Shown in pieces: positions 4,257-62,249 of a stretch of DNA of 64,000 nucleotides. Made by a program: the position numbers and the translations under genes. The DNA lies in the IMG/VR virus record IMGVR_UViG_3300044796_000222, positions 29,014 through 93,013 of that record; one strand, 5' to 3'. The notes below the pieces were generated by a model. The model searched no databases, was not told the origin of the DNA, and saw only the letters and a program-made list of their open reading frames with translations. The DNA is from a virus. Position 1 is the stretch's first letter; each line of letters opens with the position of its first letter.

Positions 4257-5864
4257 CTACGCCTCATTGACGGACGCGTCGGTTGGGGGGCCAAGCACGA
4301 TGGAGTTCAGCGGGATCAGGTCGAGAATCGTGTGTGTGCCGCTTTCTTTCGATCGCGTGAACGTGCGGCTGATGATATACATCGGCCCCTCAATTTCGCC
4401 AGCGGGCCACACGACGTTCGCGGTGGTGTCGATCGCGTAGACGTATCCGTTCTGTGCGTGACCGCTCACCATCACGCGAACCACGTCCGCCGTCTGCCTT
4501 CGGATGCAGAGTTCGTAGTTGGCGCGCTGATCGGCGTCCGCCTTCGTTTTGCATGAGTTGTCATGTATCGTGATCGGACGATAGAGGCCCATCGATTGAA
4601 TGAACGGGTCGAACACGACGGAATGGATCGGCGACCTCGCGAAGTCGCCGCCGACGCTGTGCCCATAGACGTGGATCTCTGACGGCCTATGCTCGATATT
4701 CTGAACCCTGCCGATCGACTCGCAGTTGTTGCCGTATGCCGCATCGCCCTGCTGGCAGATGAAACTGAACAGTGGGTCTTGCGTGAAGTTCGGCTTGCCG
4801 AACACGATCTTGCCGTCGGCGGTGCCCCAGATGAGCAGGTTGTAGCGGATCGCATGCCGGTGCAGGAAATCGTAGACCGATTCACCAGCGTGCGGCTTGG
4901 CCTTCTTGACGTCGATCGTGTTCAGCGCAGTAGTGGAAATGTATCGAGGTTTCTCTGCCGGGATGCGCGTAAAGCCAACCGGGACGTCAACGCCAGCTTG
5001 TGAAGCTGGAATGTATGCTCCGCTCGTCACATCGAGTATGTAGCTTGATTCTACGTCGACTACGATTTCGCCGCTGACGGCATCGAAATGCGTAGCGCTC
5101 GCTTTCGTGCCAGCGTGGCCTGGTGTGGCCGGCGTGTCCGTCGACTGAAGCACGCCGGCCGCAAATGGCGTCACCTGATAGCCTGGAAACGCTAGCGGCG
5201 TCGGGATGTCGGCCCCAAGCATGCGAAGCCGAGCCTTCGCTTGCGCATTCTTGAGGAGGTCTGGTCCAACGATCGGGATCGCGGCGATCGGGGCCGTAAC
5301 GGACGCATCACCATCGATCAGCGCTTGTGCCCGCGCTTGGGACGGGTCACGCACCGTTGTCGTTGTCGACCCGCGCCCAAGTAGGAAGTTCCGGTTTGCC
5401 GCGTTATCGATCAAGATGTCGGATTCAGCGAATCCGAATGGCGCAAGAACCTTCAGGATGACGTCACGGAATGTGACGTTGTTGAAGACGAGTCCCGGCA
5501 TCACGTCAGAATCGACCAACGGGCGCATGTGGTCGTAGCCGACGATGTGATATTCTGTGCCGTGATCCTTGCTTGACTCGATGGAACTTCGGTAGATACG
5601 CCCGCGCAACTGCAACGCTTGTCCATTTTGCGTTTCTACCTGCAAATAGATCGGCATCGCCATCGTAAGACTGCGATGCGAAATCGTGTCGCGCAGGCCG
5701 CCCGCTGCGCTTGGTGCCGGCTTCCTGAACTCGAACGAATCGGACGGATCGAGAAGATCGGACTTGATTGTATATGTTTCGTAGTCGGTAAACGTGTCGT
5801 CAGGGTCTTTCGACCGCAGGACGGCAATGCAGTCGTTCGGGCCGAACTGCCAGTTGTCGCTCAT
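4257..5864 (-). CDS. Baseplate hub protein (Mu gp44/GpD-like)
   Basis: SDLLDPSDSFEF, GESVYDFL.RHA, IWGTADGKIVF, FTRSKESGTHT motifs; ATG at 5864 overlaps the upstream stop. Confidence 0.85.
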   Translation of the reverse strand: MSDNWQFGPNDCIAVLRSKDPDDTFTDYETYTIKSDLLDPSDSFEFRKPAPSAAGGLRDTISHRSLTMAMPIYLQVETQNGQALQLRGRIYRSSIESSKDHGTEYHIVGYDHMRPLVDSDVMPGLVFNNVTFRDVILKVLAPFGFAESDILIDNAANRNFLLGRGSTTTTVRDPSQARAQALIDGDASVTAPIAAIPIVGPDLLKNAQAKARLRMLGADIPTPLAFPGYQVTPFAAGVLQSTDTPATPGHAGTKASATHFDAVSGEIVVDVESSYILDVTSGAYIPASQAGVDVPVGFTRIPAEKPRYISTTALNTIDVKKAKPHAGESVYDFLHRHAIRYNLLIWGTADGKIVFGKPNFTQDPLFSFICQQGDAAYGNNCESIGRVQNIEHRPSEIHVYGHSVGGDFARSPIHSVVFDPFIQSMGLYRPITIHDNSCKTKADADQRANYELCIRRQTADVVRVMVSGHAQNGYVYAIDTTANVVWPAGEIEGPMYIISRTFTRSKESGTHTILDLIPLNSIVLGPPTDASVNEA

Positions 5865-17593: not shown

Positions 17594-18036
17594 GGCAGGC
17601 TGTTGGTGATGGAGAGGCGGACGACCATCGTCTGACTGTCGACGCCTGCGGTCATCGCGTAACCGACGAGCACGAGGCCGGCCGAAGCGCCAAGTGCAGT
17701 GGCCCAGCCGAGTTTGCCAGAGGCGACGCTGACGGTAACGGGGCCGTCGATCGCGATCGTGCCGTTCGACATCACGACGACGGTATCGCCATCGCTGTTG
17801 AGCGTATCGAAGACGTCGCCGGGATTTGCGTCAGTGTACGAGAAACCGGCGTACGTCTTCAACGCGGTGTCAGCCGTCGTCGGAGCGCGAACCGCCGGCT
17901 GCGAGCGCTGGAGGCCGGTCGTCGAATCGTAGACGAGGAAGATGCCCGCCGGGATGACGAGCGTCGACGTGTTGCACGCACTGATCTTGTGCGTGTTGGT
18001 CATCGGGGTGAGCAGAGCTGCGCTGGGAGCGGCCAT
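17590..18036 (-). CDS. Head decoration/capsid cement protein (DUF2190-like)
   Basis: 148-aa beta-rich ORF, IAIDGPVT..ASGK...VGYAMTAG; lies between protease and capsid genes. Confidence 0.75.
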   Translation of the reverse strand: MAAPSAALLTPMTNTHKISACNTSTLVIPAGIFLVYDSTTGLQRSQPAVRAPTTADTALKTYAGFSYTDANPGDVFDTLNSDGDTVVVMSNGTIAIDGPVTVSVASGKLGWATALGASAGLVLVGYAMTAGVDSQTMVVRLSITNSLP

Positions 18037-18072
18037 GGTGTTGTTCTCGCTTTGAAGTGGTGGTGAGTGGGA

Positions 18073-19800
18073 TCAGGCCCGCGCGGCGGAACCGTTCATG
18101 ACGGCGAAGAGCGCCTGAGACCGCGAAACCGTCTGGTTCTTCGCCGACATCTTCGCGATGTACGCGTTGATCTTCTGGTCGACGGTCGCTTCCTTGCCGC
18201 CTTCGCCACCAAGCGTGGTCTCGCGGATGCTCGTCGGGTCCGGCGCGACCTGCGTGAAGTCGGTCGGGCGATCGCCGGCTGCTACGCCGTCAAAGATGGC
18301 TTTGAAATTCGCATCGAACGCCTTCGGCGCGTGCTTCAGCATCGTCAAGAGGCCCTCGCGAGACTCCGGCGTGTCGCTGAACTTGAAGCCGTAGGTCTCG
18401 CCGCACTTGATCACGACGTTGACCTTCGCGTTGAGGGCGATGTCGTCGCGCTTGGTGATCTCTGCCTTCGCGGCATCGAGATCCGTGCGGAGAGTCGTGA
18501 TCTGCGACTCCGCAGCTTTCAACTCGACGACCTTTGCAATGACGTCCTCATCGGTCGCGGTGGCAGGCAAGCCCATCGCCGACTTCGCGGTGAGGAGCGC
18601 CTTCTGAGCCGCAGCGCCAACGGCAGCGGTAGCAGCGGACGCCTTGAGCGCCGTGACGGCAGCCACAGCAGCGGTTTCGTTGGCAGACTCGTTGAGTTCG
18701 AGTGCGGTCAAAAGCAGTTTCATCTCAGCACCACCTTCCATGGGCACGTAGTCACGTTCGACTTGTGTAGCCGTCGCATCCAATTCAACGTCGCCACCAT
18801 CGACGACCTTGAATCCGATCTTGAACAGCCGATCCTTGTGGTTGACGATCGCGTAGTCATCGAAGATTTCGACGACCCGCGCGTTCCAACCGAGCGCGTC
18901 ATAGACGTGCTCACAAACTTCTTGGCAGATGTCACTGAGCGAGATATCGCGCAGTTTGATGAGCGCGCGCTTATCTGAGCACGCGAGGCTCTTCTTCACG
19001 GCGTCATCGACGAACACGCGGCGCATCGCGACGTTTCGCGCGCTCATCATCCCGGCTTGCTCGTCGCCACCCTCATCGTCGCCGAGGTCGCCGTCGCACT
19101 TGACGCACTTGGTAGCGTCCTTCGTGTTGACGGTGCCGCACATCTTGCACATCTTGTAGACGTTGCTGGCCGCAACCGGCGCGACGTCATCCGTCGCGGC
19201 CACAGCCGCAGCATCGTTCTTTTTCGCCATCGCGATCGCCGCCTCCGCTTGCTTCGCTGTCACCCGATCCATTCCATCGAGGAACGGTCGGTTGGTGAGG
19301 GCGACGCTGGTGAGCATCGCTCCAATCTTTTTGCCAGTCACTCGATCGCGCGCAGCGAACTGGACGGCCGGCGAGATGTAGCGATACTCGCCGCCGCGCA
19401 CGTATTGGCAGCCTTCGCTGTTCTGGTTCCACTCGACCAGAGCCTCCATGCGAAACTCGTCGTATCGGAGTTCGATGATGAAGCCGCTGGCGGGCGCACC
19501 GTGCTGATAGACGCCACCGTCAATCGCTTCGCTCGCGTGCTCGAAGTCGAGCGGTGGTTTGCTTTGCTGAGAGGCGAAGTTGTCCGCCATCTCTTTGTAT
19601 TGCTTGAGGCCGAACTCAAACTCGCCAGCCGGGTGCCCCTTGTAGACGCCCGTCTTCGCGACCTGAATCCACGTCTTCGGCTTGCCGACGAGCGCCTTGT
19701 CCGCGCACTGCACGATCAAGTCGTCGCGGACGCTATCGCCGATCTCTTGATTCAGTTCCGGCGCCAGATGCCCGGTGATGAATTGCGCCTTAGCTGCCAT
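18073..19800 (-). CDS. Prohead protease/scaffold (Mu gpI-like)
   Basis: WIQVAKTG, LDFEHAS, APASGFI, EYRYISP, SVALTNRPFLDGM motifs; coiled-coil C-terminus. Start may be 19821. Confidence 0.92.
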   Translation of the reverse strand: MAAKAQFITGHLAPELNQEIGDSVRDDLIVQCADKALVGKPKTWIQVAKTGVYKGHPAGEFEFGLKQYKEMADNFASQQSKPPLDFEHASEAIDGGVYQHGAPASGFIIELRYDEFRMEALVEWNQNSEGCQYVRGGEYRYISPAVQFAARDRVTGKKIGAMLTSVALTNRPFLDGMDRVTAKQAEAAIAMAKKNDAAAVAATDDVAPVAASNVYKMCKMCGTVNTKDATKCVKCDGDLGDDEGGDEQAGMMSARNVAMRRVFVDDAVKKSLACSDKRALIKLRDISLSDICQEVCEHVYDALGWNARVVEIFDDYAIVNHKDRLFKIGFKVVDGGDVELDATATQVERDYVPMEGGAEMKLLLTALELNESANETAAVAAVTALKASAATAAVGAAAQKALLTAKSAMGLPATATDEDVIAKVVELKAAESQITTLRTDLDAAKAEITKRDDIALNAKVNVVIKCGETYGFKFSDTPESREGLLTMLKHAPKAFDANFKAIFDGVAAGDRPTDFTQVAPDPTSIRETTLGGEGGKEATVDQKINAYIAKMSAKNQTVSRSQALFAVMNGSAARA

Positions 19801-21370: not shown

Positions 21371-23047
21371 TTAGAATCCGCGACCCTTGCGCTCGTACAT
21401 GGAGAGAACACCTTCGGGAGCCCAGCCATCCGGCGCGGTCGGCTTGAACGCTTCTGGAACTTCGTCGCCCACACGCTCGACGCCACCCTTGGTCATCGAT
21501 CCTGCGGCGTACTGGTCGTAACTGGTGCGGGCGCCGGAGACCTCGATCGTGAAGTCGGCGCCGCCGAGCGCGTCGTAGGCCCAAGCCATCGCGTCGACTT
21601 GATCATCGTGAGGATCGCTAACGCCAGTGAAGGCGAGAACCTCGGATTGGAACTTGTCGATCCACTCGTACTGCGCAGACGCTGACTCATCCTCGATCCC
21701 ATACCGATCGCCTTCTGGCGACACGCACGGGTTGGGAAGCAGAATCAGCCCAGCATTCCAGGCCGCCGCAACCGGCTGGGCGCGGACGAACTTATCAGAG
21801 CGCGTGATGTCGATCTGAAAGTTCAGCGATGGACCGGAGTATGACTTGGCTTCGCCGCGACCGCGATTGCCGTCGACGCCACCGAACTCAGAGTCGTCGT
21901 CCTTCGCGTTCATCAGGTCGAGCGAGCCGGCCTCGACGCTGGCGACGTAGCCGCCGATGCGAGCGCTGGGATACTCTCGACGAAGGCCGCGAAGCACGGC
22001 CCTGAACTGCGGAGTCGCCGCGTGCATCCTGATAACCTTCAGGACGTAGTAGATGCCTTTGTGGAGCATCATCACGACTGCGGCGGCGTAGTCGGATGAC
22101 GTCTTCGCCGAGTAGGCCAGGTCGCACCCGATGGCGATCCTGAAACTGTCTACAGGTAATTCGTTGGCGGCGTATAGAGCGACGCCGTTGAAAACGGAAC
22201 CACCCTTTCGACGCGGGCGACAGTCGTATAAGCACGCCCACTCGTATTCTCCGATTTTAGATCGGATTGTGGTAAGCGCTTTGACTGGCCATCGTTCGGG
22301 CCAGAGCGATGTCCCTGCCTCTCGCCCTGTCGGGTCGTCCTCGCCAGCGATTGCTGGCAAGCAGATCGTTTCCCAATCTCCGTCGCCGCTCTTTATCTGC
22401 CTTCCCTGGAGATCGTCGTCATGCCATCTCGTGTGGCACACTATAACGGAGCCGTTTGGCTCTCGACGCGTCAAAGCCGTCGACTGGAACCATTCGCTAA
22501 CTGCTTCGCGCTTGATCGCGGACTCTGCGGCGGCTCTGTCTTTGTGGGGGTCGTCGACAAATATGCATTGTGCGCCGAAGCCTGTCAGGCTCCCACCTAC
22601 ACCCACAGCAATCACCCCCCCACGATTCGAGGTGCGCCACTCGCTTTTGGAGTTCGTCTCTTTCGAGAATTCGACCCCGGCGAGCCTGGCGTACTCCCGC
22701 GCCTTCGATGACTGGAATAGCGCGAGTTTCGATGAGTAGGACGCGTATGCGATCGTCCAGTCCGAATGGCTGACGAGCAGCCACGCGATTGAATGAAGCA
22801 ACGTCTCGGATTTTGAAAAACGAGGCGGCACGCTGAGCAGGGCGAATACTTGCTCGCCGGATCGAATGCGCTCCAACACGGAAAGTAGCGGGGCCAGGTG
22901 GAGTGGTTTGCTAAACTTCGGCGAAATCCTAGGAATGAAGTCCGCCAGCGACTCCGAAGATCCACGCGTCGTCTGAAGTTGCGTCTCGATCTGCCTCTTG
23001 TGAGGTTCGAGAACCTCATCGAGAATGCTGCGCTTGCCACCAGCCAT
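21371..23047 (-). CDS. terL: Terminase large subunit
   Basis: Walker A PPRFSKS, Walker B IFVDDPHKD, TRWHDDDL; nuclease motifs GCDLA, DKFVRA, HDDQVDA. Confidence 0.95.
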   Translation of the reverse strand: MAGGKRSILDEVLEPHKRQIETQLQTTRGSSESLADFIPRISPKFSKPLHLAPLLSVLERIRSGEQVFALLSVPPRFSKSETLLHSIAWLLVSHSDWTIAYASYSSKLALFQSSKAREYARLAGVEFSKETNSKSEWRTSNRGGVIAVGVGGSLTGFGAQCIFVDDPHKDRAAAESAIKREAVSEWFQSTALTRREPNGSVIVCHTRWHDDDLQGRQIKSGDGDWETICLPAIAGEDDPTGREAGTSLWPERWPVKALTTIRSKIGEYEWACLYDCRPRRKGGSVFNGVALYAANELPVDSFRIAIGCDLAYSAKTSSDYAAAVVMMLHKGIYYVLKVIRMHAATPQFRAVLRGLRREYPSARIGGYVASVEAGSLDLMNAKDDDSEFGGVDGNRGRGEAKSYSGPSLNFQIDITRSDKFVRAQPVAAAWNAGLILLPNPCVSPEGDRYGIEDESASAQYEWIDKFQSEVLAFTGVSDPHDDQVDAMAWAYDALGGADFTIEVSGARTSYDQYAAGSMTKGGVERVGDEVPEAFKPTAPDGWAPEGVLSMYERKGRGF

Positions 23048-23580
23048 CAGTGCGTAGTGGCCGCGTCGATGTCCGCGAGAACGCTGTCCTGCGTGATCGT
23101 CTCGGACTCGTCGGCGTCAATCTCTTGCGCGCGGGTCATCGCGGTCATGATCCGCTGCATCAACTGCGGCTCGTTGGCGAACTCACTGCGGAGTGCCACG
23201 ACAAGCCCGTTGAGCGTGGCCTTCAGGACGGCGCGCGTGTTCGGGTGGAACTCTTGCGGCATCTGCCGTTCGATGACCCAGCACGCCAACTTCGTGTCGA
23301 GCCCCGCCGGGTTGTCAACGTCGAGGCCCGCTTCGATCACATCGAGCGCCTTGTCAACGAGAATTGACTCGGCCCTCTGCGCCCTCTCGAAGAACTGCGC
23401 GAACGGGCTATCGCCTTGGTCGGCGAGTCGGCGCCACGTCACCCATCGAGCGGGCGTGACGCCGAGTGACCGAGCGGCGCGAGCAAGCGGGACGCCCTTG
23501 GATGACTTCTCGATGATCTGGCGCGCAAGCTCCTGCGTCAGACCGCATCGAGTCACCCACTGAGCATCGCCGCCGGCCAT
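23047..23580 (-). CDS. terS: Terminase small subunit
   Basis: N-terminal HTH, FFERAQRAE, ACWVIER..P.EF; stop overlaps the terL start. Confidence 0.8.
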   Translation of the reverse strand: MAGGDAQWVTRCGLTQELARQIIEKSSKGVPLARAARSLGVTPARWVTWRRLADQGDSPFAQFFERAQRAESILVDKALDVIEAGLDVDNPAGLDTKLACWVIERQMPQEFHPNTRAVLKATLNGLVVALRSEFANEPQLMQRIMTAMTRAQEIDADESETITQDSVLADIDAATTH

Positions 23581-29026: not shown

Positions 29027-29072
29027 CTCCCTCCCCTTGACACCTTCCCTACTTCTGGTGTACGCATTCAAC

Positions 29073-30434
29073 ATGTCCGCTGAGAAGACCCACCAGCGAA
29101 TTGTTCGGGAATTAGACCCAAACAACGAGGTGCTGACGTCTTTTCGCAAATACGCGGGAACCAAAAGGCTTGTCTACAACTTGTACTTGGAGGCCGCCCA
29201 GACGCTCTTTCACTCGTGCCAAGACAAGGTACGCTTCCTCAAGAAGAACGACTTCAAGCGGGAGTTCACTGCGCGTAGGCACTCAGACTTCCCTTGGATG
29301 GACGAAATCCCATCCAATCTCATCGAACTTGCTATCGATGACGCCGATCGTGCCTATCAAAACTTCTACGCCGCTCGCAAGAAGGCTAGGAAGGTGGGAC
29401 TCCCTCGTCGAAAGAAGAAAGGCAACGCACGAGACTCCTTCCGCTTCCGAAACGAGCTAGTCAAACTTCTAGACCGTCGGCATATACACGTCTCCAAGAT
29501 CGGCCGGGTCAGACTCAAAGAGCCCCTTCGCTTCATCAAAGACCAACGGGTCGTAAGCCTCACAGTCTATCGCGAAGCCGATCGCTGGTTCGGATCGTTT
29601 CTGGTCGAAGAACCCTTGGCCACACCTGTTCCGCCTACTAATCCGATCGTGGGAGTAGACCTCGGGGTCCTCACGTTCGCGACCGTTTCGGACGGTTTCA
29701 GCTACCAAAGAGTCGCTCACACCAACGCTCTCAAGTCCTCATTGAAGCGTCTCCAACGTCTTAGTCGTCAACAGTCACGAAAGGAAAGGGGCTCAAACAG
29801 CAAGAAGAAAGCCACCATGAAGCTCGCCCGACAGCATAGGCGAGTGAAGAATATCCGAGAGACGCAGATCCACAAGCTCACCACGAAGCTGGCGAAAACC
29901 AAGTCAGTCGTCGTGATCGAGGACCTCAACGTCTCTGGGATGGTGAAGAACAAGAACCTAGCGCGATCCGTCATGGATCAAGGGTTCGGGATGGTCCGAC
30001 GCCAGTTGGAGTACAAGACCAAGAAGTTCGGGTCTCGCCTCCTCGTGGTCGATCGGTTTTTCCCGTCCTCGAAGCTGTGCTCTGTGTGCGGGTTCAAGTG
30101 CGAGAAGATGCCTCTTAGTGTGAGGCGTTGGAGTTGCGTCAAGTGCGGCGCAACCCACGATAGGGACGAGAACGCCTCGGAGAACCTGAGGCAAGAAGGC
30201 CAACGCATGTTGGCTAACGATTTAGTACCCCAAATGCTGGGGGAATTTACGCCTGAGGAGATCCCTCTGGGGGTGGACGGCACGATGATGGGGTGCACTG
30301 GAAGCACCCCAGAGGCGTCTACTGCCCATGGGTCGTTGAACCAGGAAGCGGGCTCAACGTGTGGGAAGTCCTCACGTACGGTAAGTCCCGTCAATGCCGG
30401 AGGCTCCCCACTCGTGGGGGAGCCTACCGGATAG
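29073..30434 (+). CDS. tnpB: RNA-guided endonuclease TnpB (IS607/IS605-type)
   Basis: RuvC-I GVDLG, RuvC-II VIEDL, Zn finger CSVC/CVKC, RuvC-III HDRDENA; the catalytic D-E-D triad is intact. Confidence 0.95.
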   Translation: MSAEKTHQRIVRELDPNNEVLTSFRKYAGTKRLVYNLYLEAAQTLFHSCQDKVRFLKKNDFKREFTARRHSDFPWMDEIPSNLIELAIDDADRAYQNFYAARKKARKVGLPRRKKKGNARDSFRFRNELVKLLDRRHIHVSKIGRVRLKEPLRFIKDQRVVSLTVYREADRWFGSFLVEEPLATPVPPTNPIVGVDLGVLTFATVSDGFSYQRVAHTNALKSSLKRLQRLSRQQSRKERGSNSKKKATMKLARQHRRVKNIRETQIHKLTTKLAKTKSVVVIEDLNVSGMVKNKNLARSVMDQGFGMVRRQLEYKTKKFGSRLLVVDRFFPSSKLCSVCGFKCEKMPLSVRRWSCVKCGATHDRDENASENLRQEGQRMLANDLVPQMLGEFTPEEIPLGVDGTMMGCTGSTPEASTAHGSLNQEAGSTCGKSSRTVSPVNAGGSPLVGEPTG

Positions 30435-32729: not shown

Positions 32730-33275
32730 ATGCCAAGACGATGGGCGCAAGAGTTGACGGCGGAGATGATCGGTCTGAATCCGACGATCGTGAAGCGTTT
32801 CTGGGCGCAGGTCGCGGAGCCAAATGAGCGCGGGTGCCGGCTGTGGACCGGAGCGCTACGAGGCAAGACCGGCTACGGCTGCATGAAGGTCAACAAGAAG
32901 GTCTACGACACGCACCGCCTCGGCTTCGTAATCCGATTCGGAACAGTCAGCGCCGGCAGAGTGGTGCGCCACTCGTGCGACATCCGCCGCTGCGTAGAAC
33001 ATCTTCTGATCGGCTCTTCGGCCGACAACCATCGCGATATGGTAGTCCGTGGGCGCGCCGTAACGCCAGCGCAGATGAGCGCGAAAATGAAGGCGCTTGG
33101 CCATCGTCCGCCACCGCCGAAGCGAACACTCAACCCAGAGCAGGTTCGGCTGGTTCGGATGCGGGTCAAGGCTGGCGATACGCACCAATCGATTGCTGAC
33201 GATTTCGGCATTTGTCGGCAATCGATCACGATGATTGTCGGCGGGAGAACCTATACGGATATCGCGAGCGCGTGA
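32730..33275 (+). CDS. HNH homing endonuclease with C-terminal HTH
   Basis: CRLWTG...GYG...HR...VRHSCDIRRCVEHL..GS.ADN. Confidence 0.88.
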   Translation: MPRRWAQELTAEMIGLNPTIVKRFWAQVAEPNERGCRLWTGALRGKTGYGCMKVNKKVYDTHRLGFVIRFGTVSAGRVVRHSCDIRRCVEHLLIGSSADNHRDMVVRGRAVTPAQMSAKMKALGHRPPPPKRTLNPEQVRLVRMRVKAGDTHQSIADDFGICRQSITMIVGGRTYTDIASA

Positions 33276-35439: not shown

Positions 35440-35647
35440 CCGGCGCTCCTTCGGCCGCGAGCAGACGCGCCTTCTCCCTTCGGAACGCTTTGATCGTGGC
35501 GAGTTGAACGTTGCGGCCCACCTCAATATCTCTAAGCACGGACTGCGACACGTGCATGACGTTCGACGCCTGCTTCCGCGAGCCGCACTTCTTCGAGAGC
35601 CTGAGCGCGAATGCGACGTCATCTTCGTTGGGCTTGACGAGGCTCAT
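35420..35647 (-). CDS. Small XRE-like HTH protein
   Basis: SRKQASNVMHVSQSVLRDIEVGR. Confidence 0.6.
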   Translation of the reverse strand: MSLVKPNEDDVAFALRLSKKCGSRKQASNVMHVSQSVLRDIEVGRNVQLATIKAFRREKARLLAAEGAPDAEPNT

Positions 35648-35967
35648 TCGTCGGACTCCACGACCGCCATGACGGCGTCCTCTTGCACGATGGCAAGTCG
35701 GTCGCTGTCGCCGGACGCTTCGTGCAGCCGCTTGTCCATGCAGACGACGCGATCGCCGACAGCGAGCGGGATAGGCAGGCGCGAGCCGTCTTCAAGCATC
35801 TTGCCGGGACCGAGCGCCTTCACCCGCCCGACCGAATATCGGAAGTCCGCCGACGCGGTGCGCGGGATGAAGATGAGGCCGCTCTTTTCAGCCGCCGGCT
35901 CGTATTCGACGAGTACGCGATCGCGAAGGAGGCGCGTGGCGAGGACGGTTTCGTCGGTGGCGGTCAT
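35644..35967 (-). CDS. groES: Co-chaperonin GroES-like
   Basis: LRDRVLVE, SGLIFIP, GRVKALGPGK, LAVGDRV, IVQEDAVMAVVE. Confidence 0.9.
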   Translation of the reverse strand: MTATDETVLATRLLRDRVLVEYEPAAEKSGLIFIPRTASADFRYSVGRVKALGPGKMLEDGSRLPIPLAVGDRVVCMDKRLHEASGDSDRLAIVQEDAVMAVVESDE

Positions 35968-37212
35968 GCTGCACTCGCTTCGATGGGTTTTCGCCTCAAG
36001 GTGAAAGTGCCGTCCGTGTGTTCCCACACCGGAATGACACGCAGGCGAAGGCCGCGCTTGCGCGCCCACTCGCGCATCCGATCTGCGTGATGCTGCGCCT
36101 GTTCCTGGTCGATTTGTGCGACCAATTCCTTCGCGCTCCACTCGGTCATGTCGCAAGCCTCATCGCCGCCGTGGCCGTCATCGGTCAACCAGTAGGTATG
36201 GCCGTTGCCCTTCGCTCGAATAGCGAAGCGACGCCACGGCGGATCGAGGAAGCGCGGCATTTTAGGCGTCCGCCGCGCTCGGCGCCGCATGAGCGTCGGG
36301 CTTCGGCGCTTGCGCGGCGTCCCACTTGTCGACGTACTTCTGGCCGTCGCTCACGTCATCGGCGCCGCCGTGCGTGAACGTCGCCGACGTGATCGTGTGC
36401 CCCGCGTCGCGGAGTTTTTGCACGAACTCGGCGGCCATCTTGTTGGCGTCGTAAGCGAGGCTCGGGTTGTGGTGGCAGCCCGTGCCTTGAACCGTGATGT
36501 TCCAGTTGCCCATGGTCGTTCTCCTCGTTGGTTCAACAGCGGTAGAGAGTCTGCTCGTCGGGGCTCACGCCGCCGATGATCGGTTGGCTCGCCTTCGAGC
36601 CCTTCAGCGTTTCGATGGGATGCTTCTTCTTCGTCGGCTTCGCCTCTTCTGGCGACGTCGGCAGCGGCGGCGCATGCGCCTCGCTCAACGCCTCTTGCTG
36701 CGCGGCTGGAAACGACGGGTCGATCTCGTGGATGAAGACAAGCGCAAGGTGACGTCGAATCATGTCGGCTTGCGCAGACGAGATGGGGCCGCCCTCGCGC
36801 AGTTCCATGAAGCCCTGCAACCAGTAGCAAAAGTCGCGCGACGTCATCACGACTTCGCCTTCATCCGCTTTTCGACAACGAGAAGCGCGCGAACGACGGC
36901 GCGATTGCGAGCGCCGCCAGCAACGGTGCGCTCTGCGGCACGAGCCGCGCGCTTGACGCTGCGACGCTGGTCGGCCTTCGCGTAAGCGATGGCGCGCACG
37001 GCGTTGTAGGCTGACATCGGCTTGTAGTTGACGTGAGTGCCGGTCGCTTCACCGCCGCACTTCTCGCCGCGACCGAGGCCGCCCTTGGAGCCGCCGCCAC
37101 GGAACTCGCCGCGCACCTTGCGCTCCTGTTCCTTCATGCCAGGCATCGCGGACATCGCCGCGACGGAGGCCATGATGCCGAGCAATGCCGACCGATTCAT
37201 TCCCTTACTCAT
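35964..37212 (-). other. Four small hypothetical genes (35964-36260, 36262-36513, 36533-36850, 36847-37212)
   Basis: Tight packing; GGAG-type RBS before several starts. Confidence 0.6.
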
Positions 37213-37222
37213 CTCGTCTCCT

Positions 37223-37912
37223 TCACGGCTCCTGCATGTACATCGTTGCCCAATCATACGGATCGATCTTGCGGCGGATGCCTTCGAGTGCGAACGTTGG
37301 CCATCGCGACGGCCACACCGATTCGCCACTGCTATCAAGCGCCGGAATCTTGATCTGCTCCCACGGCACTCCACGCGCCTTCGCCTTGTAGAGTTCTCCG
37401 AGCACGTCATCCTCCATCCAACGATTGTCGCAGACCACGATCGAGCAGTCCGGCATCGCGCGGGTGAAGAGTGTCTGGTCGATCCATTCCAAAATCGCCC
37501 CACGCTTCACCCGGTTGTCGGCGACCACTCGATCTTTGATCGGCGAATCGAGCACGATCAGATCGGCTCCGACGCCGGTCAACGAACCGCCAACGCCGCA
37601 CGGAACGATTCCGTGTTTCCACGCTCCGACGCCGACGCTCGAATCGCCGGCCTGGAGTTGCGAGACCTTGGCGCCGGCCAACTTGTCCGAATAGGTGGCG
37701 TAGATGAACGAGCCCGACTTCCGCGCCTCCGACATCCACGCAAGCGCGTGCAGCAAGGTCGACGATCTCGCGAATCGTGGAGGTGCAGCGATGGTCGCGA
37801 AGACGCGTTCACCGGAACGGATGCGCTCGAAAGCATCGAACACTGGCGCCATGTGCATCGGCGCCTCAAGCGCTGGCGACCTGTGCGTGATGTAGTCGGC
37901 GAGAGAGGTCAC
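37223..37912 (-). CDS. Stand-alone terminase ATPase-domain paralog with degenerate Walker motifs
   Basis: Colinear with the TerL N-terminal domain (SLAD.I, ERIRSGE, PPRF, GVGGSLTG, WP.RWP); ends YMQEP with no nuclease domain. Confidence 0.88.
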   Translation of the reverse strand: MTSLADYITHRSPALEAPMHMAPVFDAFERIRSGERVFATIAAPPRFARSSTLLHALAWMSEARKSGSFIYATYSDKLAGAKVSQLQAGDSSVGVGAWKHGIVPCGVGGSLTGVGADLIVLDSPIKDRVVADNRVKRGAILEWIDQTLFTRAMPDCSIVVCDNRWMEDDVLGELYKAKARGVPWEQIKIPALDSSGESVWPSRWPTFALEGIRRKIDPYDWATMYMQEP

Positions 37913-38410
37913 GCTTGCCCCGCAACCATCTCGACACGCCCGCGCAAGATGTGGCCGAGCAAGAAGATCGCGTCGTAAAACGGGTCCAGTTGCGCCGCCG
38001 TGCCGTCCCAGATCGAAGGGAAGCCTTTCGATTTCGATCGTGTAGCCGGGATCTCTGTCTGCGTTTCGTTGGTCATGTTCCGTGCCTCTTCCGTGAAGAT
38101 TCTGCCACCGACGACGCTGATTCGCGTATCGGACCGTCAGAACCTAGCGATCGCGCTCAGTCTGTCAACTGGCGCTGGCAGCGATGCGTCCGTAGCTCAC
38201 GCGCCGTCGTGGCGCCTCGTCGTCTTCGCTGTCGACAGCCAGGAACGAATCGAAGCCGTTTCTGCTCTCGCCGAAAAGGTCGACGCGAGTTTGCTCTTCG
38301 CACGGTCGACAGACGGCGAACGGCATCGATGTGGCGATGGTGACTGTCGCTGGAGCCTTGCAGCAACGGAGGCAGATGCGGTTGGGCGGACCCGTGTTGT
38401 GCTTTTCCAT
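37909..38410 (-). other. Two small hypothetical genes (37909-38076, 38165-38410)
   Basis: Manual reading; the first overlaps the start of the terminase paralog. Confidence 0.45.
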
Positions 38411-38462
38411 GGGCCGAAGCATAATGTCGTTCTGCGATTCACGCAAGTGGTCGATTTGCCAG

Positions 38463-38491
38463 TTGACAGGATTCTTTGGGGTGACCATGTT
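38463..38491 (+). promoter_or_regulatory. Sigma70-like promoter
   Basis: TTGACA-N17-CATGTT upstream of 38536. Confidence 0.6.
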
Positions 38492-39084: not shown

Positions 39085-39097
39085 GCCTGATACGACG

Positions 39098-39135
39098 ACG
39101 GCGACCGGGTTGAGCCTGGTCGCCGTTTTCGTTTT
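39098..39135 (+). terminator. Rho-independent terminator
   Basis: ACGGCGACCGGG/CCTGGTCGCCGT stem followed by TTTCGTTTT. Confidence 0.8.
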
Positions 39136-39136
39136 G

Positions 39137-40350
39137 TCAGACCACCTCCACCGTCAAGTCGTTGCCGGCCACCAGTCGCAGAACATCAACGAGCCGCTTC
39201 CTCTCTCCGATCAGCGCCCCGGCGGCGACACGGATCGCGCGCCAGTAGTGAACGCCGCACGCGCCACTCTCGCTCTGCCAGGTCTTCGACGCTTCGATCA
39301 TGTAGCGCCCGCAGGTCGTGAAGTAGACCCATGCGCCCTTCGCAGCGCGCTTCACTTTGGCGCGACCGACGTTAGGCAGAGGGAAGAGCGGCTCGGTCAT
39401 GACGATTCCCGTGGATCATACCCCAACGCCTCGCGACAGAACTCAGCGATCGCCACCCACAGATCGCCGAACACGTACGGCGGGTAGTCGGCGTCGAAAT
39501 CGAAGCGTGCGATGCGTGCGGCGTCGATGTAGGCGGTCGACCAGTCATCGCAGCCGACGCATACCTTATAAACGGCCATCCTGCCGTCGTACGATCCAGC
39601 GTGTCTCGCATACGCCTCGCCAACCGAGATCACGCATTGGCATTCCCAGCATCGGTGCGACTTACGCGCCTTCAGGCGAGCAACTGTCGAGAAGTCGGTC
39701 ATCGCCTCTCCATCTCGTAATTGGCAATCCAGCACACGCGGGGGTCCGGAGGCGCCAACTCCGCCTCCCGCATCGCCGCCCGTCTCAGCACGCGCAGATA
39801 CGTCACGATCTCCACGAACGCCTGCGCCGCATCGTTCCCGCGCGCCGCATCCGATTCGAGCATCGCTACGTTCGCAGCATCGGCCGCCAGCGCGTTCATG
39901 TCCTCGAACCTCTCCCGCGACGTCTCCCGGTTCAACGCGTTGTGGATCTTGTGGCTCCACACGATCATCGCGGCACCGGCGCGATTGGCGAAGGCGAGCG
40001 GCAGTCGATGCGCAGGCACCCGTTGCAGCCCGGTGGCGCGAAGATGCCGACGAGCGCGAACGTCGACAGCATGACGATGAACACGACGTCGGACCAGCGC
40101 TGGTAGAGTTGCTCGCGGAAGGTCATTCATGGCCTCCGATACAACAACACCAGCCCTTTTCGTCCGGCGTAGAGCAGACCGGCAGCACACTGTAGCCTTT
40201 CAGCCGCGCGTTGTGGCAGGCGATCTTCACTTCCTCAACGGTCATCGGCACTCCGTTTTTCAGAAGGAACGGCGCGATGTGGCGCCGAATATAAGCATCG
40301 CCGAAGCGGTCGCAGGTCGCGTCCATTTGCATGCCGTTCGGGGTCGTCAT
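39137..40350 (-). other. Five small hypothetical genes (39137-39400, 39397-39702, 39699-39968, 39965-40126, 40123-40350)
   Basis: Chain of ATGA overlaps; 39397-39702 has KARKxHxCxEC; 39965-40126 has a hydrophobic segment. Confidence 0.6.
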
Positions 40351-41765
40351 GCCGCCTGCCACTTCTCGAATTGAGAGAGCAGAGGCTTCGTGTCGTAGCC
40401 GACACGCATCGGGATCATCTCGACGCTGGATACGTATGACGAGCGCGCCACACGACCTGACACCGCGTCGATATACATCGAGAACGTGCCGTCATCGGTG
40501 TGGAAGCACCACGCTGGGATACCGGCGTCAACGATCTGCTTCTGGTATTGCGCAGCCAGCGCCGTGTCGATTCCGATCTTCGGGCACGCGTGCTTGTTGC
40601 CCAGCGCTTTGACGATATCGAGCCAGCCGGAGTAGTCGTGCGGCGTAACATCGCATCCACGCCCCGTCGTCTTGTAGCCAAGCAGCGTGAGCCGCAGGGA
40701 CGCCTTATGCGCCGCTGCCAGAACGCCCTCGAAATCACTCATTGGGCGACAACCCATCACGAACTGCACTGCGGCTCGGCGAGAACCGTGACACATATCG
40801 TTCGTCTCCACCTTCTTCGCTTTCAATGCTGCGGCGAACCTCCGAACATCGTCGCCAGTTTCAACCGAGAACGCGAAGGAGCCGATGACTGCGTTCAATC
40901 GACGAAACGTGTCGGCATCCTTGATCCACGCCAGCGAACGCGTCGTGAAGTTCGGCACGACGCCTTCCCTTCTGAGCAACTCGCAGAACTCGACGAACTT
41001 CGGGTGCAGCGTTGGCTCTCCACCGCCAATCGCCGCCTCGAACACCCGTAGATCACCAAGCGCATACGCGATCGAACTCATCGCGTCCCACTCCGCGTGA
41101 GCGCCAGTCGGCGTCGACCCCTGGTAGCAGTACGTGCAGCCGAAGTGGCACTGATCGGTGATTTTGATGTCGATCAGTTCAGGCGCGAATGCCTTTGTCG
41201 GAGCGGGCGCCTTCTCGTCGAACGACATGCGGATCTTGGCGCCGCTCCCACGAGAGAAAAGCGACCAGTAGTTCCCCTTGGCATCGAATCGCGCCACCGG
41301 GCTTTCCGTCTCTCGACCGAGACCGAGCCCAGCGTTGGCGCCGCTGCCGGCCATCGGGTGTCCATCGCTGTTGTCGTTGCCGCCGAGTACTACGACATCG
41401 TCGCGCAGCACGTGATCGCGCCACGACTGCGCGAAGTCGATATCCAATTCCGCGCCATCCCACGCGCGAGGCAACGCGATGTGGCTCTGGTGATCGACGC
41501 CGATTTCGTCGCTCCCCACGACGCCACTTATCGCCTCCGCAATCAGTTTCGCATTGCCTGCGTCGCACCCGATATTGCGGAGCGCCGTCGACATCTGCGC
41601 GTTGATGTAGAGCCGCTTAGACTCGGCCGACGAGAGCGTGAAGTCCTCCCATCCGAACATGTCGTCGTCGAAGTTGTCCCTCGGACGCGACTTGTTGACG
41701 AAAATCATCGAGTGAGACGACGACGAATTGGTTGCGTGCCCAAGCCTAACGTTATGGATCTTCAT
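40347..41765 (-). CDS. Radical SAM protein with N-terminal TNSSS domain
   Basis: CHFGCTYC (CxxxCxxC), AIGGGEPTLHP, VPNFTT; N-terminal RLGHATNSSSSHS. Confidence 0.9.
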   Translation of the reverse strand: MKIHNVRLGHATNSSSSHSMIFVNKSRPRDNFDDDMFGWEDFTLSSAESKRLYINAQMSTALRNIGCDAGNAKLIAEAISGVVGSDEIGVDHQSHIALPRAWDGAELDIDFAQSWRDHVLRDDVVVLGGNDNSDGHPMAGSGANAGLGLGRETESPVARFDAKGNYWSLFSRGSGAKIRMSFDEKAPAPTKAFAPELIDIKITDQCHFGCTYCYQGSTPTGAHAEWDAMSSIAYALGDLRVFEAAIGGGEPTLHPKFVEFCELLRREGVVPNFTTRSLAWIKDADTFRRLNAVIGSFAFSVETGDDVRRFAAALKAKKVETNDMCHGSRRAAVQFVMGCRPMSDFEGVLAAAHKASLRLTLLGYKTTGRGCDVTPHDYSGWLDIVKALGNKHACPKIGIDTALAAQYQKQIVDAGIPAWCFHTDDGTFSMYIDAVSGRVARSSYVSSVEMIPMRVGYDTKPLLSQFEKWQAA

Positions 41766-42052
41766 GTCGCTCTCCTTGGCGGCGGACTCATCGGCATGCC
41801 GCCTGAAATCTTCATCGGCCCCAGCTCGGCCGCACGCTTCACTTGCGCTGGCGTCAGCGGTGTCGGCTCGTCGAAGTCCGCGCCGAGCCCGAAGCGTTCG
41901 ATCATCTCGTTGACGACGCCACGCTGCCGTTCGGTCAGGCATGGGTACCGGTCAAGGCTCTGGCGCATGTCCTCCAGCATCACCGTCTGCGCGTCGGAGA
42001 GATTCTGGTCGAGTAGCGCATTCAACACGCGGACGTCGCGAGCGCGGTTCAC
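41762..42052 (-). CDS. Hypothetical protein (probable paralog of 52454-52756)
   Basis: Start/stop overlaps; shared QRG...GPM..PPP pattern. Confidence 0.55.
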   Translation of the reverse strand: MNRARDVRVLNALLDQNLSDAQTVMLEDMRQSLDRYPCLTERQRGVVNEMIERFGLGADFDEPTPLTPAQVKRAAELGPMKISGGMPMSPPPRRAT

Positions 42053-49603: not shown

Positions 49604-50278
49604 TTGAGGACTGGCCGCCCAAGAATTGACGTGTCTGGTAAAAAGTTTGGGATGCTGACGATCTTGTCGCCTGACGGCAACATCGGGAAGTCCCCAGCGT
49701 GGTCATGTATATGCGATTGCGGGAATGTTGTCACCAGGTCAATCTGGTCGATCCAATCCCTCAGCGCTTATTCTTGTGGATGTACAAGGCGTCCGAGAAA
49801 AACGGACGCGATGCCTCAGTTGGGCATGTCCGGCACGCTCAGGGAGAGCAACGAATACTATATCTGGCACGACATGAAACGCAGATGCGAAGACCGGCGC
49901 CGCAAGGAGTATCACCGGTACGGCGGAAGGGGCGTACGTGTTTGCGATAGGTGGCGACTGTCTTTCAGGGACTTTCTGCAAGACGTTGGGCCTAGGCCGA
50001 CGCCCGGCCATAGTCTAGACAGGTTCCCAAACCAGAACGGAGATTACGAACCGGGGAACGTTCGTTGGGCGACGCAGAAGGAGCAAACAAGGAACAGAAA
50101 AAGCAACACGTACCTGACGTGTGGCGGCGAGACGATGTTGATGATGGACTGGACCAAGAGAACAAGTTTCGGCCACGGGATGATCAGAACCAGACTGCGT
50201 CTTGGATGGACTGAGGAGGAAACTCTTTCGATCCCTCGTGGCGTATCCAGAAAGGCGTACTACCGTGGCACTCACTGA
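49604..50278 (+). CDS. HNH-type homing endonuclease
   Basis: WSCICDCGN, IWHDMKRRC, YGGRGVRVCDRW, SLDR...NGDYEPGNVRWAT. Confidence 0.88.
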   Translation: MRTGRPRIDVSGKKFGMLTILSPDGNIGKSPAWSCICDCGNVVTRSIWSIQSLSAYSCGCTRRPRKTDAMPQLGMSGTLRESNEYYIWHDMKRRCEDRRRKEYHRYGGRGVRVCDRWRLSFRDFLQDVGPRPTPGHSLDRFPNQNGDYEPGNVRWATQKEQTRNRKSNTYLTCGGETMLMMDWTKRTSFGHGMIRTRLRLGWTEEETLSIPRGVSRKAYYRGTH

Positions 50279-57072: not shown

Positions 57073-57603
57073 CTACGGGAGGTGAGTCCAGGTATGACGC
57101 ATTATGACGCGCGATACGCTGCGTCTGGACATTCCAATATCTGATGCGATAACGCGCGCAATATCACCGCCCGCTGCGCGCTGTCGTATGATCGCGACCA
57201 TACTATCAGTGAGGCGAGCACGCGGATTTAGTTCACCCTTCACTGGACGACTATACGTTCGCCCCTTCCGGGCGCAGTCTTTGTTGTTGTCCGCTGCCGT
57301 ACCAGCGAACAGGTGCGCCGGATTAGCGCATGGCGGGTTATCACAGCGATGGCAGACGAACAGCCCGTCGATCGCGACGCCAGAGAGGGCCATCGCAACT
57401 CGGTGAGCGCTCAGCGCTTTGCCTGCGCACACAAATTGGCCGTACCCACATGTATCCAAATGCCCTGTCCACGGCCAACAGGCGTCGTGACCACCACTGT
57501 TGTCCACGCGCGACCAAAGCACGCACGCCATTGAGCAGTAGAATCTACTGATGGACATATCGTGGGTTGCGCCACAACACTTGCATGCATATACTTTCGA
57601 CAT
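57073..57603 (-). CDS. HNH homing endonuclease
   Basis: CWPWTG...GYG...AHR...VCHRCDNPPCANPAHLFAGT.ADN; C-terminal HTH. Confidence 0.92.
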   Translation of the reverse strand: MSKVYACKCCGATHDMSISRFYCSMACVLWSRVDNSGGHDACWPWTGHLDTCGYGQFVCAGKALSAHRVAMALSGVAIDGLFVCHRCDNPPCANPAHLFAGTAADNNKDCARKGRTYSRPVKGELNPRARLTDSMVAIIRQRAAGGDIARVIASDIGMSRRSVSRVIMRHTWTHLP

Positions 57604-61562: not shown

Positions 61563-62065
61563 GGCGACACCGCGGCTTGCTCGATCTCTTCACCGTCATC
61601 GTCATCGTCATCGTCATCGTCATAGACGGGACACTTCCGACCGTAGACGCGCAGATATCGATCGTTGGATTCCGGCACCTCCGCGAATCGAGTCTCGACG
61701 CCACCCTCGTAGGTCGCCTCGTACTCCCAGCCGCCCTCGTCGATCGACTCTACGTCGAACCGTGCGAGCGGATACATCGCGGCGAGCTTGGCGAAGATCG
61801 GACGCGGCACACCGTTCGCCGTTTGAAACGTGAACATGAACCGACGCGAATCAACGCCGCGATCGATGCGTTCCTTACGATCGTCGGGCATCAATTCGTC
61901 GAGCGATACGCGGCTCCATTCGTAGTTCCACGTTCCTCCGCGTTGAACGACGAGCATTTGGCCGTTACTATGGCGCGGACGCTCGATGACCAATAATTCT
62001 TCGCGATCGGATTTCCTAAGCACAACCATCGCTTCGACAGGCGGCCAGATGTTCGGTTGTGTCAT
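61559..62065 (-). CDS. Hypothetical protein with DUF1281/YubB-like C-terminal domain and poly-Asp tail
   Basis: FTFQTANGVP.PIF.KLA..YP...F.VES.DEG; (GATGAC)n repeat. Confidence 0.55.
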   Translation of the reverse strand: MTQPNIWPPVEAMVVLRKSDREELLVIERPRHSNGQMLVVQRGGTWNYEWSRVSLDELMPDDRKERIDRGVDSRRFMFTFQTANGVPRPIFAKLAAMYPLARFDVESIDEGGWEYEATYEGGVETRFAEVPESNDRYLRVYGRKCPVYDDDDDDDDDGEEIEQAAVSP

Positions 62066-62249
62066 CTCTTCCTCGGTTCAACAGGCACGACGCGGGCGAA
62101 CTTTCGGTCCTGCGGAGCATAGTTGCCGTCGATTGCGTCCTGCGCAAGTTCACGCGTCAGGAAAGTCTCGCCGACGCCTGGGAACCAGACGCGTTGCCAG
62201 CCGCCTTCGCAGCCGCGCGGGGAGACGCGGAGCTCGACTGCGAAGGATG

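Follow-up and report, generated by a model that had tools for sequence, protein, structure and literature searches.

The minus-strand reading frame at 37223..37912 of the viral DNA analysed here encodes a 229-aa, nuclease-less paralogue of the ATPase domain of the phage's own large terminase subunit (TerL), and BLASTP, PHROG, AlphaFold2 and a phylogenetic tree together characterise its product, P0001, as a probable pseudo-ATPase. The protein is a TerL paralogue yet it is not a TerL: it lacks four defining features, namely the Walker A lysine, the acidic pair of Walker B, the nuclease domain and a location in the packaging module, and it possesses a fifth, the N-terminal ASCE/RecA-like ATPase fold with its lid. 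We consider that the gene is probably maintained in a non-catalytic role, and that it represents an independent variant within a group with little characterisation so far, the nuclease-less TerL copies. The fuller proposal, in which a selected pseudo-ATPase gene of the TerL lineage also tunes packaging, is, when taken jointly, a serious candidate whose chances we place a little under even. Positions given below are those of the window (the whole 64,000-nucleotide stretch that was analysed) unless record positions are named; the window comprises bases 29014-93013 of a 93,013-bp IMG/VR virus record with a CheckV completeness of ~87% and a G+C content of 62%.

Homology to TerL extends over the full ATPase domain and ends at its border. 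The closest relative is the full-length TerL of the same genome (P0002, 558 aa, 21371..23047, minus strand), with which BLASTP aligns the paralogue colinearly over TerL residues 33-278 (40% identity, E 6e-55), as the original prediction had proposed from short shared motifs; identity to this segment measured end to end is 40-45%. Profile searches matched phrog_38 'terminase large subunit' (1.7e-26) and phrog_4758 (9.7e-20), and a search of Pfam gave no match. The first 32 residues of TerL have no counterpart in the paralogue. At the other end the homology stops at P229, which corresponds to TerL P278, a family-invariant proline that closes the ATPase domain, and the frame thus does terminate at the ATPase-nuclease boundary, as had been suggested. 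The first nuclease aspartate of TerL lies ~30 residues past this proline; 3' of the P0001 stop codon, resemblance to TerL is limited to two arginine codons, and nuclease-like sequence was found neither downstream of the gene nor elsewhere in the record, except in terL itself. The frame consists of 229 open codons between a GTG start and a TGA end, with no stops or frameshifts, and the 18 residues that precede its first ATG are as TerL-like as the remainder of the protein. AlphaFold2 returned a confident model (pLDDT 93.5, pTM 0.90), as did a separate Atlas model (pLDDT 0.86), and the best Foldseek matches are TerL ATPase domains, with the best solved match (8dgc_E, TMq 0.78) being the TerL of PhiV-1 in complex with Avs3. 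Divergence is greatest in residues 81-100, a segment that carries deletions, shares 10% identity with TerL and is modelled with low confidence.

The gene lies well away from the packaging genes. These form part of a late module on the minus strand, which consists of terS (the small terminase subunit gene, 23047..23580), terL, and then the portal, protease and major capsid protein genes, while the paralogue sits among small accessory genes outside the packaging module, 14.2 kb from terL (the 14 kb first noted for an intact 229-aa frame). A six-frame self-comparison of the entire 93-kb record, in which a second packaging module around the paralogue was sought, revealed only two TerL-like places, P0001 and TerL, and no other structural gene that is duplicated. 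The codon-position GC values of the gene (0.60/0.49/0.76) are typical for genes of this phage, and the regional G+C around it is uniform.

Several repeats and paralogues occur elsewhere in the record. Two diverged paralogue pairs were found, one with 38% identity (49604-50278, plus strand, and record 17647-18324, plus strand) and one with 28% identity (32730-33275, plus strand, and 57073-57603, minus strand), together with a transposase-family ORF at 29037-30434 (plus strand; phrog_506, 8e-98). A 400-bp inverted repeat, 91% identical, has one copy at 61852-62249 and the other at record positions 1752-2146, outside the window, so that each end of the 93-kb record has a copy ~1.75 kb away; inverted terminal regions, an invertible segment or an effect of assembly could account for the symmetrical arrangement. 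A perfect 67-bp direct repeat with 49 bp spacing (record 4699-4765 and 4815-4881) is likewise outside the window.

The case against catalysis rests on a comparison with 128 TerLs of the same family, in which all of the motifs quoted in the original prediction, including the alterations in Walker A, Walker B and motif III, were found as described. Walker A reads PPRFARS (37763..37783, minus strand) where TerL has PPRFSKS, the lysine K79 (AAA) having been replaced by R49 (AGA); this lysine is present in 128 of 128 family members, and arginine occurs at the position in the paralogue alone. The Walker B motif, which takes the form hhhhDD in this family, reads LDSP (37541..37552, minus strand) in place of VDDP, through the replacement of D166 (GAC) by S123 (TCG) at three base differences; the second aspartate is found in 99% of TerLs and serine only in the paralogue, and the first aspartate (D122) is kept. 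A further change had previously been missed: the serine of the 'AES' motif, conserved in 100% of the family TerLs, is an asparagine here and here alone (S176, TCC, to N133, AAC; 37514..37516, minus strand). In the motif III region, DNRW (37418..37429, minus strand) replaces HTRW, with T206 changed to N163 and the Arg-Trp kept, and a conserved histidine has become M166. Other parts of the site are preserved, including the Pro-Pro-Arg and the serine of the P-loop, the first Walker B aspartate, R128, R137, R151, the motif III Arg-Trp, the invariant D169, and the lid motifs WPxRWP and W...P. Compared with a canonical TerL, the paralogue therefore has in common the fold, domain limits, P-loop Arg/Ser, first Walker B aspartate, motif III Arg-Trp and lid motifs, and is set apart by the absence of the Walker A lysine, the second Walker B acid, the invariant serine, the nuclease and TerL residues 1-32.

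On this pattern ATP hydrolysis by the protein is very unlikely, while nucleotide binding may survive, since the P-loop backbone, its Arg/Ser and the first Walker B aspartate are kept. Several of the invariant residues that have been lost lie two to three bases from the TerL codon (GAC to TCG, TCC to AAC, CAT to ATG), and such multi-base changes point to a long time spent without catalytic constraint. Across the positions that are conserved in at least 98% of the family, three of ten are changed in the paralogue; a uniform loss of ~20% would give about the same proportion, and specific targeting of the catalytic residues is therefore not statistically supported.

Whether such a gene is maintained or is simply decaying was examined through several measures of constraint. 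The paralogue has evolved 3-4 times faster than TerL (branch 1.60 versus 0.39), with Tajima relative-rate comparisons counting 37-51 changes unique to the paralogue and 10-15 unique to TerL (p about 1e-5); with the proteins 45% identical, the two genes are saturated at synonymous sites. If divergence had been neutral, the chance of a frame free of stops at the observed divergence would be about 0.003, from substitutions alone and before indels are considered. On a family HMM built without P0001 and TerL, the paralogue scores 220.7 bits and the TerL N-terminal domain 328.9 bits, whereas sequences evolved neutrally in simulation from terL, and still free of stops, reach 72+-16 bits when 45% identical, 141+-15 when 60% and 189+-14 when 70% identical. 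Furthermore, at the sites where TerL carries the family-majority residue, retention of that residue by the paralogue falls from 79% in the quartile of highest conservation to 35% in that of greatest variability (rho -0.33, p 8e-5). Constraint is nonetheless weaker than in real TerLs, as seen both in the HMM score, ~100 bits under that of TerL, and in retention across the conserved half of sites, which at 0.69 falls below all 96 control TerLs (minimum 0.71). Taken together, these indirect tests argue against a long neutral decay, and the pattern, as read from substitutions, appears far from full neutrality, although a brief neutral phase in the recent past would also fit.

This last qualification matters for the main alternative, that the gene is a non-functional remnant, i.e. 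a piece of terL encoding the ATPase domain that was duplicated, or captured from a related phage, and is now slowly decaying, its frame having stayed open by chance or through the polar effect that a stop would have on downstream genes. A two-phase history, in which a normal TerL evolved in an unsampled sister phage, was captured and then underwent ~18% neutral change, fits the data about as well as continuous maintenance, and would also explain why three of the ten most invariant positions are altered: TerL-like divergence followed by uniform change of this size reproduces both the identities and the three-in-ten loss, and the chance of remaining free of stops over ~18% change is about 0.06-0.13. 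The accelerated rate, the retention of fewer conserved sites than in any control TerL and the status of the gene as a singleton, with an orthologue in no collection searched, all speak for decay. Set against these are the end of homology within a few residues of the 3' domain boundary, the clean ORF coupled to both of its neighbours, the absence of any frameshift together with N-terminal residues (the 18 before the first ATG) that are conserved like the rest, the two confident fold models, and the changes of two to three bases per codon at invariant sites, which are unlikely in a short neutral phase. Junk is also usually deleted quickly from phage genomes. On balance we hold a remnant to be unlikely, but still to be reckoned with, and continue with the reading that the gene is maintained.

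Searches for relatives place the origin of the gene close to the phage's own terminase. Among 1.84 billion representative proteins, the best non-self match by phmmer is the phage's own TerL (46%, 1e-48), followed by ordinary full-length TerLs at ~37%; neither this search nor a word-index search at near and longer lengths yielded anything nearer than the own TerL, and scanning IMG/VR, the genomes of GTDB and the metagenomes of JGI by pattern gave no orthologue. Among cultured phages, tblastn identified more than one place matching the paralogue in only 1 of 1047 matching records. The closest relative of the phage's TerL is P0157, the TerL of a related phage on a 21.5-kb ENA contig, 76% identical to P0002, and a maximum-likelihood tree recovers the topology (P0001,(P0002,P0157)), in which the trio is supported at 100/85 and the two TerLs group at 99/80. 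From this topology it follows that the split of the paralogue from the TerL lineage of this phage group predates the divergence of the two phages; judged from the sequences, either terL was duplicated in this genome or the copy was captured from a sister phage that has not been sampled. The P0157 protein bears an intein-like insert of ~130 aa directly after the Walker A lysine, and P0075, a metagenomic fragment of the TerL of the other of the two closest relatives, has an intein-like insert at the same site, of which only the end is seen; the terL of the present phage, unlike both, is without an insert at this position.

Another member of this TerL family, the metagenomic protein P0097 (291 aa, drawn from the representative library), resembles the paralogue in that it comprises the ATPase domain only, without a nuclease, and has a degenerate Walker B (ND) and no 'AES' serine; it differs in keeping the Walker A GKS and in possessing an unrelated 72-aa tail. 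The possibility that the two form a family was considered and rejected: they are joined at 96/92, but as two long branches meeting, P0097 groups elsewhere once P0001 is omitted, and the rare residues that they share are no more numerous than those shared with other TerLs. Their grouping is a probable case of long-branch attraction, and P0097 is probably an independent case of a nuclease-less TerL ATPase derivative.

In its immediate surroundings the gene is tightly fitted into a string of minus-strand ORFs. The TGA stop of a 55-aa ORF directly upstream (37909..38076) overlaps the GTG start of the paralogue (GTGA), and the AAGGAG ribosome-binding site of a 121-aa ORF downstream (36847..37212) starts on the final base of the stop codon of the paralogue. 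A promoter-like site, TTGACA-N16-TAGGTT (38141..38168, minus strand), recognised by consensus match only, precedes the 55-aa ORF by about 65 nt; the consensus has 2 matches in the window against 0.31 expected. The stop of a 107-aa ORF with two CxxC pairs and the look of a zinc ribbon (38165-38488, minus strand) overlaps the TTGACA of this site. Farther upstream, between convergent genes, is a G+C-rich hairpin (39097-39127) with a 14-bp stem and a T-rich tail, likely, from its sequence, to act as a terminator in both directions and to delimit the operon on the upstream side of the string. The same string includes a gene for a GroES/Cpn10-like co-chaperonin (35644..36156, minus strand; PF00166, 3.8e-13), the product of which bears an N-terminal extension of ~75 aa. 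Informative matches among the neighbours in Pfam, PHROG and PADLOC were limited to this protein and a radical-SAM protein of 531 aa (40347-41942, minus strand); the latter has a weak match to the PADLOC prokaryotic viperin models (1.1e-8) and an N-terminal region of ~250 aa without any match.

This setting raises a second alternative, that the ATPase fold has been co-opted outside packaging and now serves as an adaptor or a regulator of some other process, such as DNA metabolism, or morphogenesis together with the GroES-like gene. The distance from the packaging module and the string shared with the Cpn10-like gene are consistent with such a role, as are the retained P-loop backbone, P-loop Arg/Ser and first Walker B aspartate, with which nucleotide binding may survive, and the deletions in residues 81-100, which suggest a remodelled surface. 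The idea is, however, purely inferential, the protein having gained no new domain and the gene having no informative neighbour that would indicate such a function, and we judge co-option of this kind distinctly unlikely.

We instead favour a role tied to the terminase. The protein retains its ATPase fold complete with the lid, as well as most of the P-loop, while the Walker A lysine, the second Walker B carboxylate, other invariant residues and the nuclease domain are all gone. Having lost its catalytic residues and lacking a nuclease, the protein would be unable to package or cut DNA, and without a working active site it would act by binding only. We suggest that it may be expressed from the non-structural operon and bind something with which the terminase ATPase domain normally interacts. 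The phage's own TerL, contacted through the ring interface, is the likeliest candidate and the one that best suits the ancestry of the protein, with TerS or DNA as alternatives; by entering or capping the TerL assembly it could then tune when or how the packaging motor assembles. This specific mechanism, acting through a terminase partner, is offered tentatively, as a possibility whose chances fall clearly short of even. The same binding could be directed outward, such that related phages that co-infect or superinfect the cell have their terminase rings entered or capped by the protein, and their packaging stalls. Inactive subunits generally impair ring ATPases, and the location of the gene in an accessory, non-structural operon would suit a weapon against competitors; yet no TerL is closer to it than that of the phage itself (45%), so self-poisoning would be expected first. 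We regard this use as quite improbable. A broader conception is also a long shot: a mimic that may still bind nucleotide without hydrolysing it would cap or poison terminase rings, whether to time packaging or as a weapon against related phages, or else would occupy the immune sensors Avs2, Avs3 or Upx unproductively.

The immune branch of these ideas had figured in the original prediction, which saw the gene as a selected terminase mimic that might titrate terminase-sensing immunity. Much of that view stands: the protein is a paralogue, its hydrolysis of ATP is very improbable and the gene looks maintained. The decoy role finds no such support. As formulated, a dead ATPase domain would bind Avs1-3 or Upx without activating them and would thereby shield the real TerL, and two observations make this attractive, namely that the closest solved structure is the PhiV-1 TerL bound to Avs3 (8dgc_E) and that the features altered in the paralogue are those which Avs2 and Avs3 read, SeAvs3 and EcAvs2 being known to read the TerL active site and bound ATP (PMC13601566). 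In co-expression assays, however, EcAvs2 responds more than 1000-fold to the isolated TerL ATPase domain, which is also sufficient for activating all Upx homologues tested, and T4 vs.8, a stand-alone TerL-like protein, activates EcAvs2 as well; Upx is, moreover, mostly still activated by terminases with alanine at the Walker B and nuclease aspartates (PMC13601566). A free TerL N-terminal domain would thus be a trigger by default rather than a sponge, and binding by the paralogue would be expected to activate these sensors and not to block them. A stoichiometric sponge would also need high early expression, and anti-defence and PADLOC searches of the gene's neighbourhood gave no matches. We consequently regard the decoy as highly improbable; if anything, by analogy with the published sensors, the changes in the active site are easier to reconcile with evading recognition than with titrating a sensor.

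Returning to the favoured reading, of a maintained and non-catalytic paralogue, the nearest parallels among known systems differ from it in instructive ways. Truncated TerL-like genes adjoin terL in Rak2-like phages (CBB_274), phiM12 and phiN3 (PMC5259590), and these resemble the present case in that a second, incomplete TerL-like gene accompanies a full TerL in the genome. They derive, however, from T4-type gp17 and lie next to terL, whereas the paralogue described here belongs to its own TerL lineage and is found 14.2 kb off, in a distant operon of a phage that is not a jumbo phage. The T4 protein vs.8 is a stand-alone ATPase-like protein homologous to the ATPase domain of gp17 (PMC13601566), and so, like the paralogue, is related to the TerL ATPase domain, stands alone and has its gene at a distance from those of the terminase; the paralogue differs in having lost key residues. 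Its placement as sister to its own TerL lineage (100/85) suggests that it arose independently of the CBB_274 and vs.8 types. A third comparison is with split terminase genes, which phrog_4758 and phrog_5573 appear to represent as separate halves, judging from profile lengths and match positions. The match to phrog_4758 (9.7e-20) reflects the shared property of an ORF that holds the ATPase half only, but here the record has no nuclease half, an intact TerL is present, and the catalytic residues are lost.

Together, T4 vs.8, the Rak2-like and phiM12-like genes and P0097 demonstrate that nuclease-less copies of the terminase ATPase recur in unrelated phages. As a singleton, the paralogue described here contributes a single data point on such copies. 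Were it true that the protein occupies Avs2, Avs3 or Upx unproductively, it would be without precedent among phages as an encoded mimic of a conserved viral pattern. More generally, if proteins of this kind regulate or sabotage packaging motors, or alter terminase-sensing immunity, they would constitute a new class of phage pseudo-enzymes.
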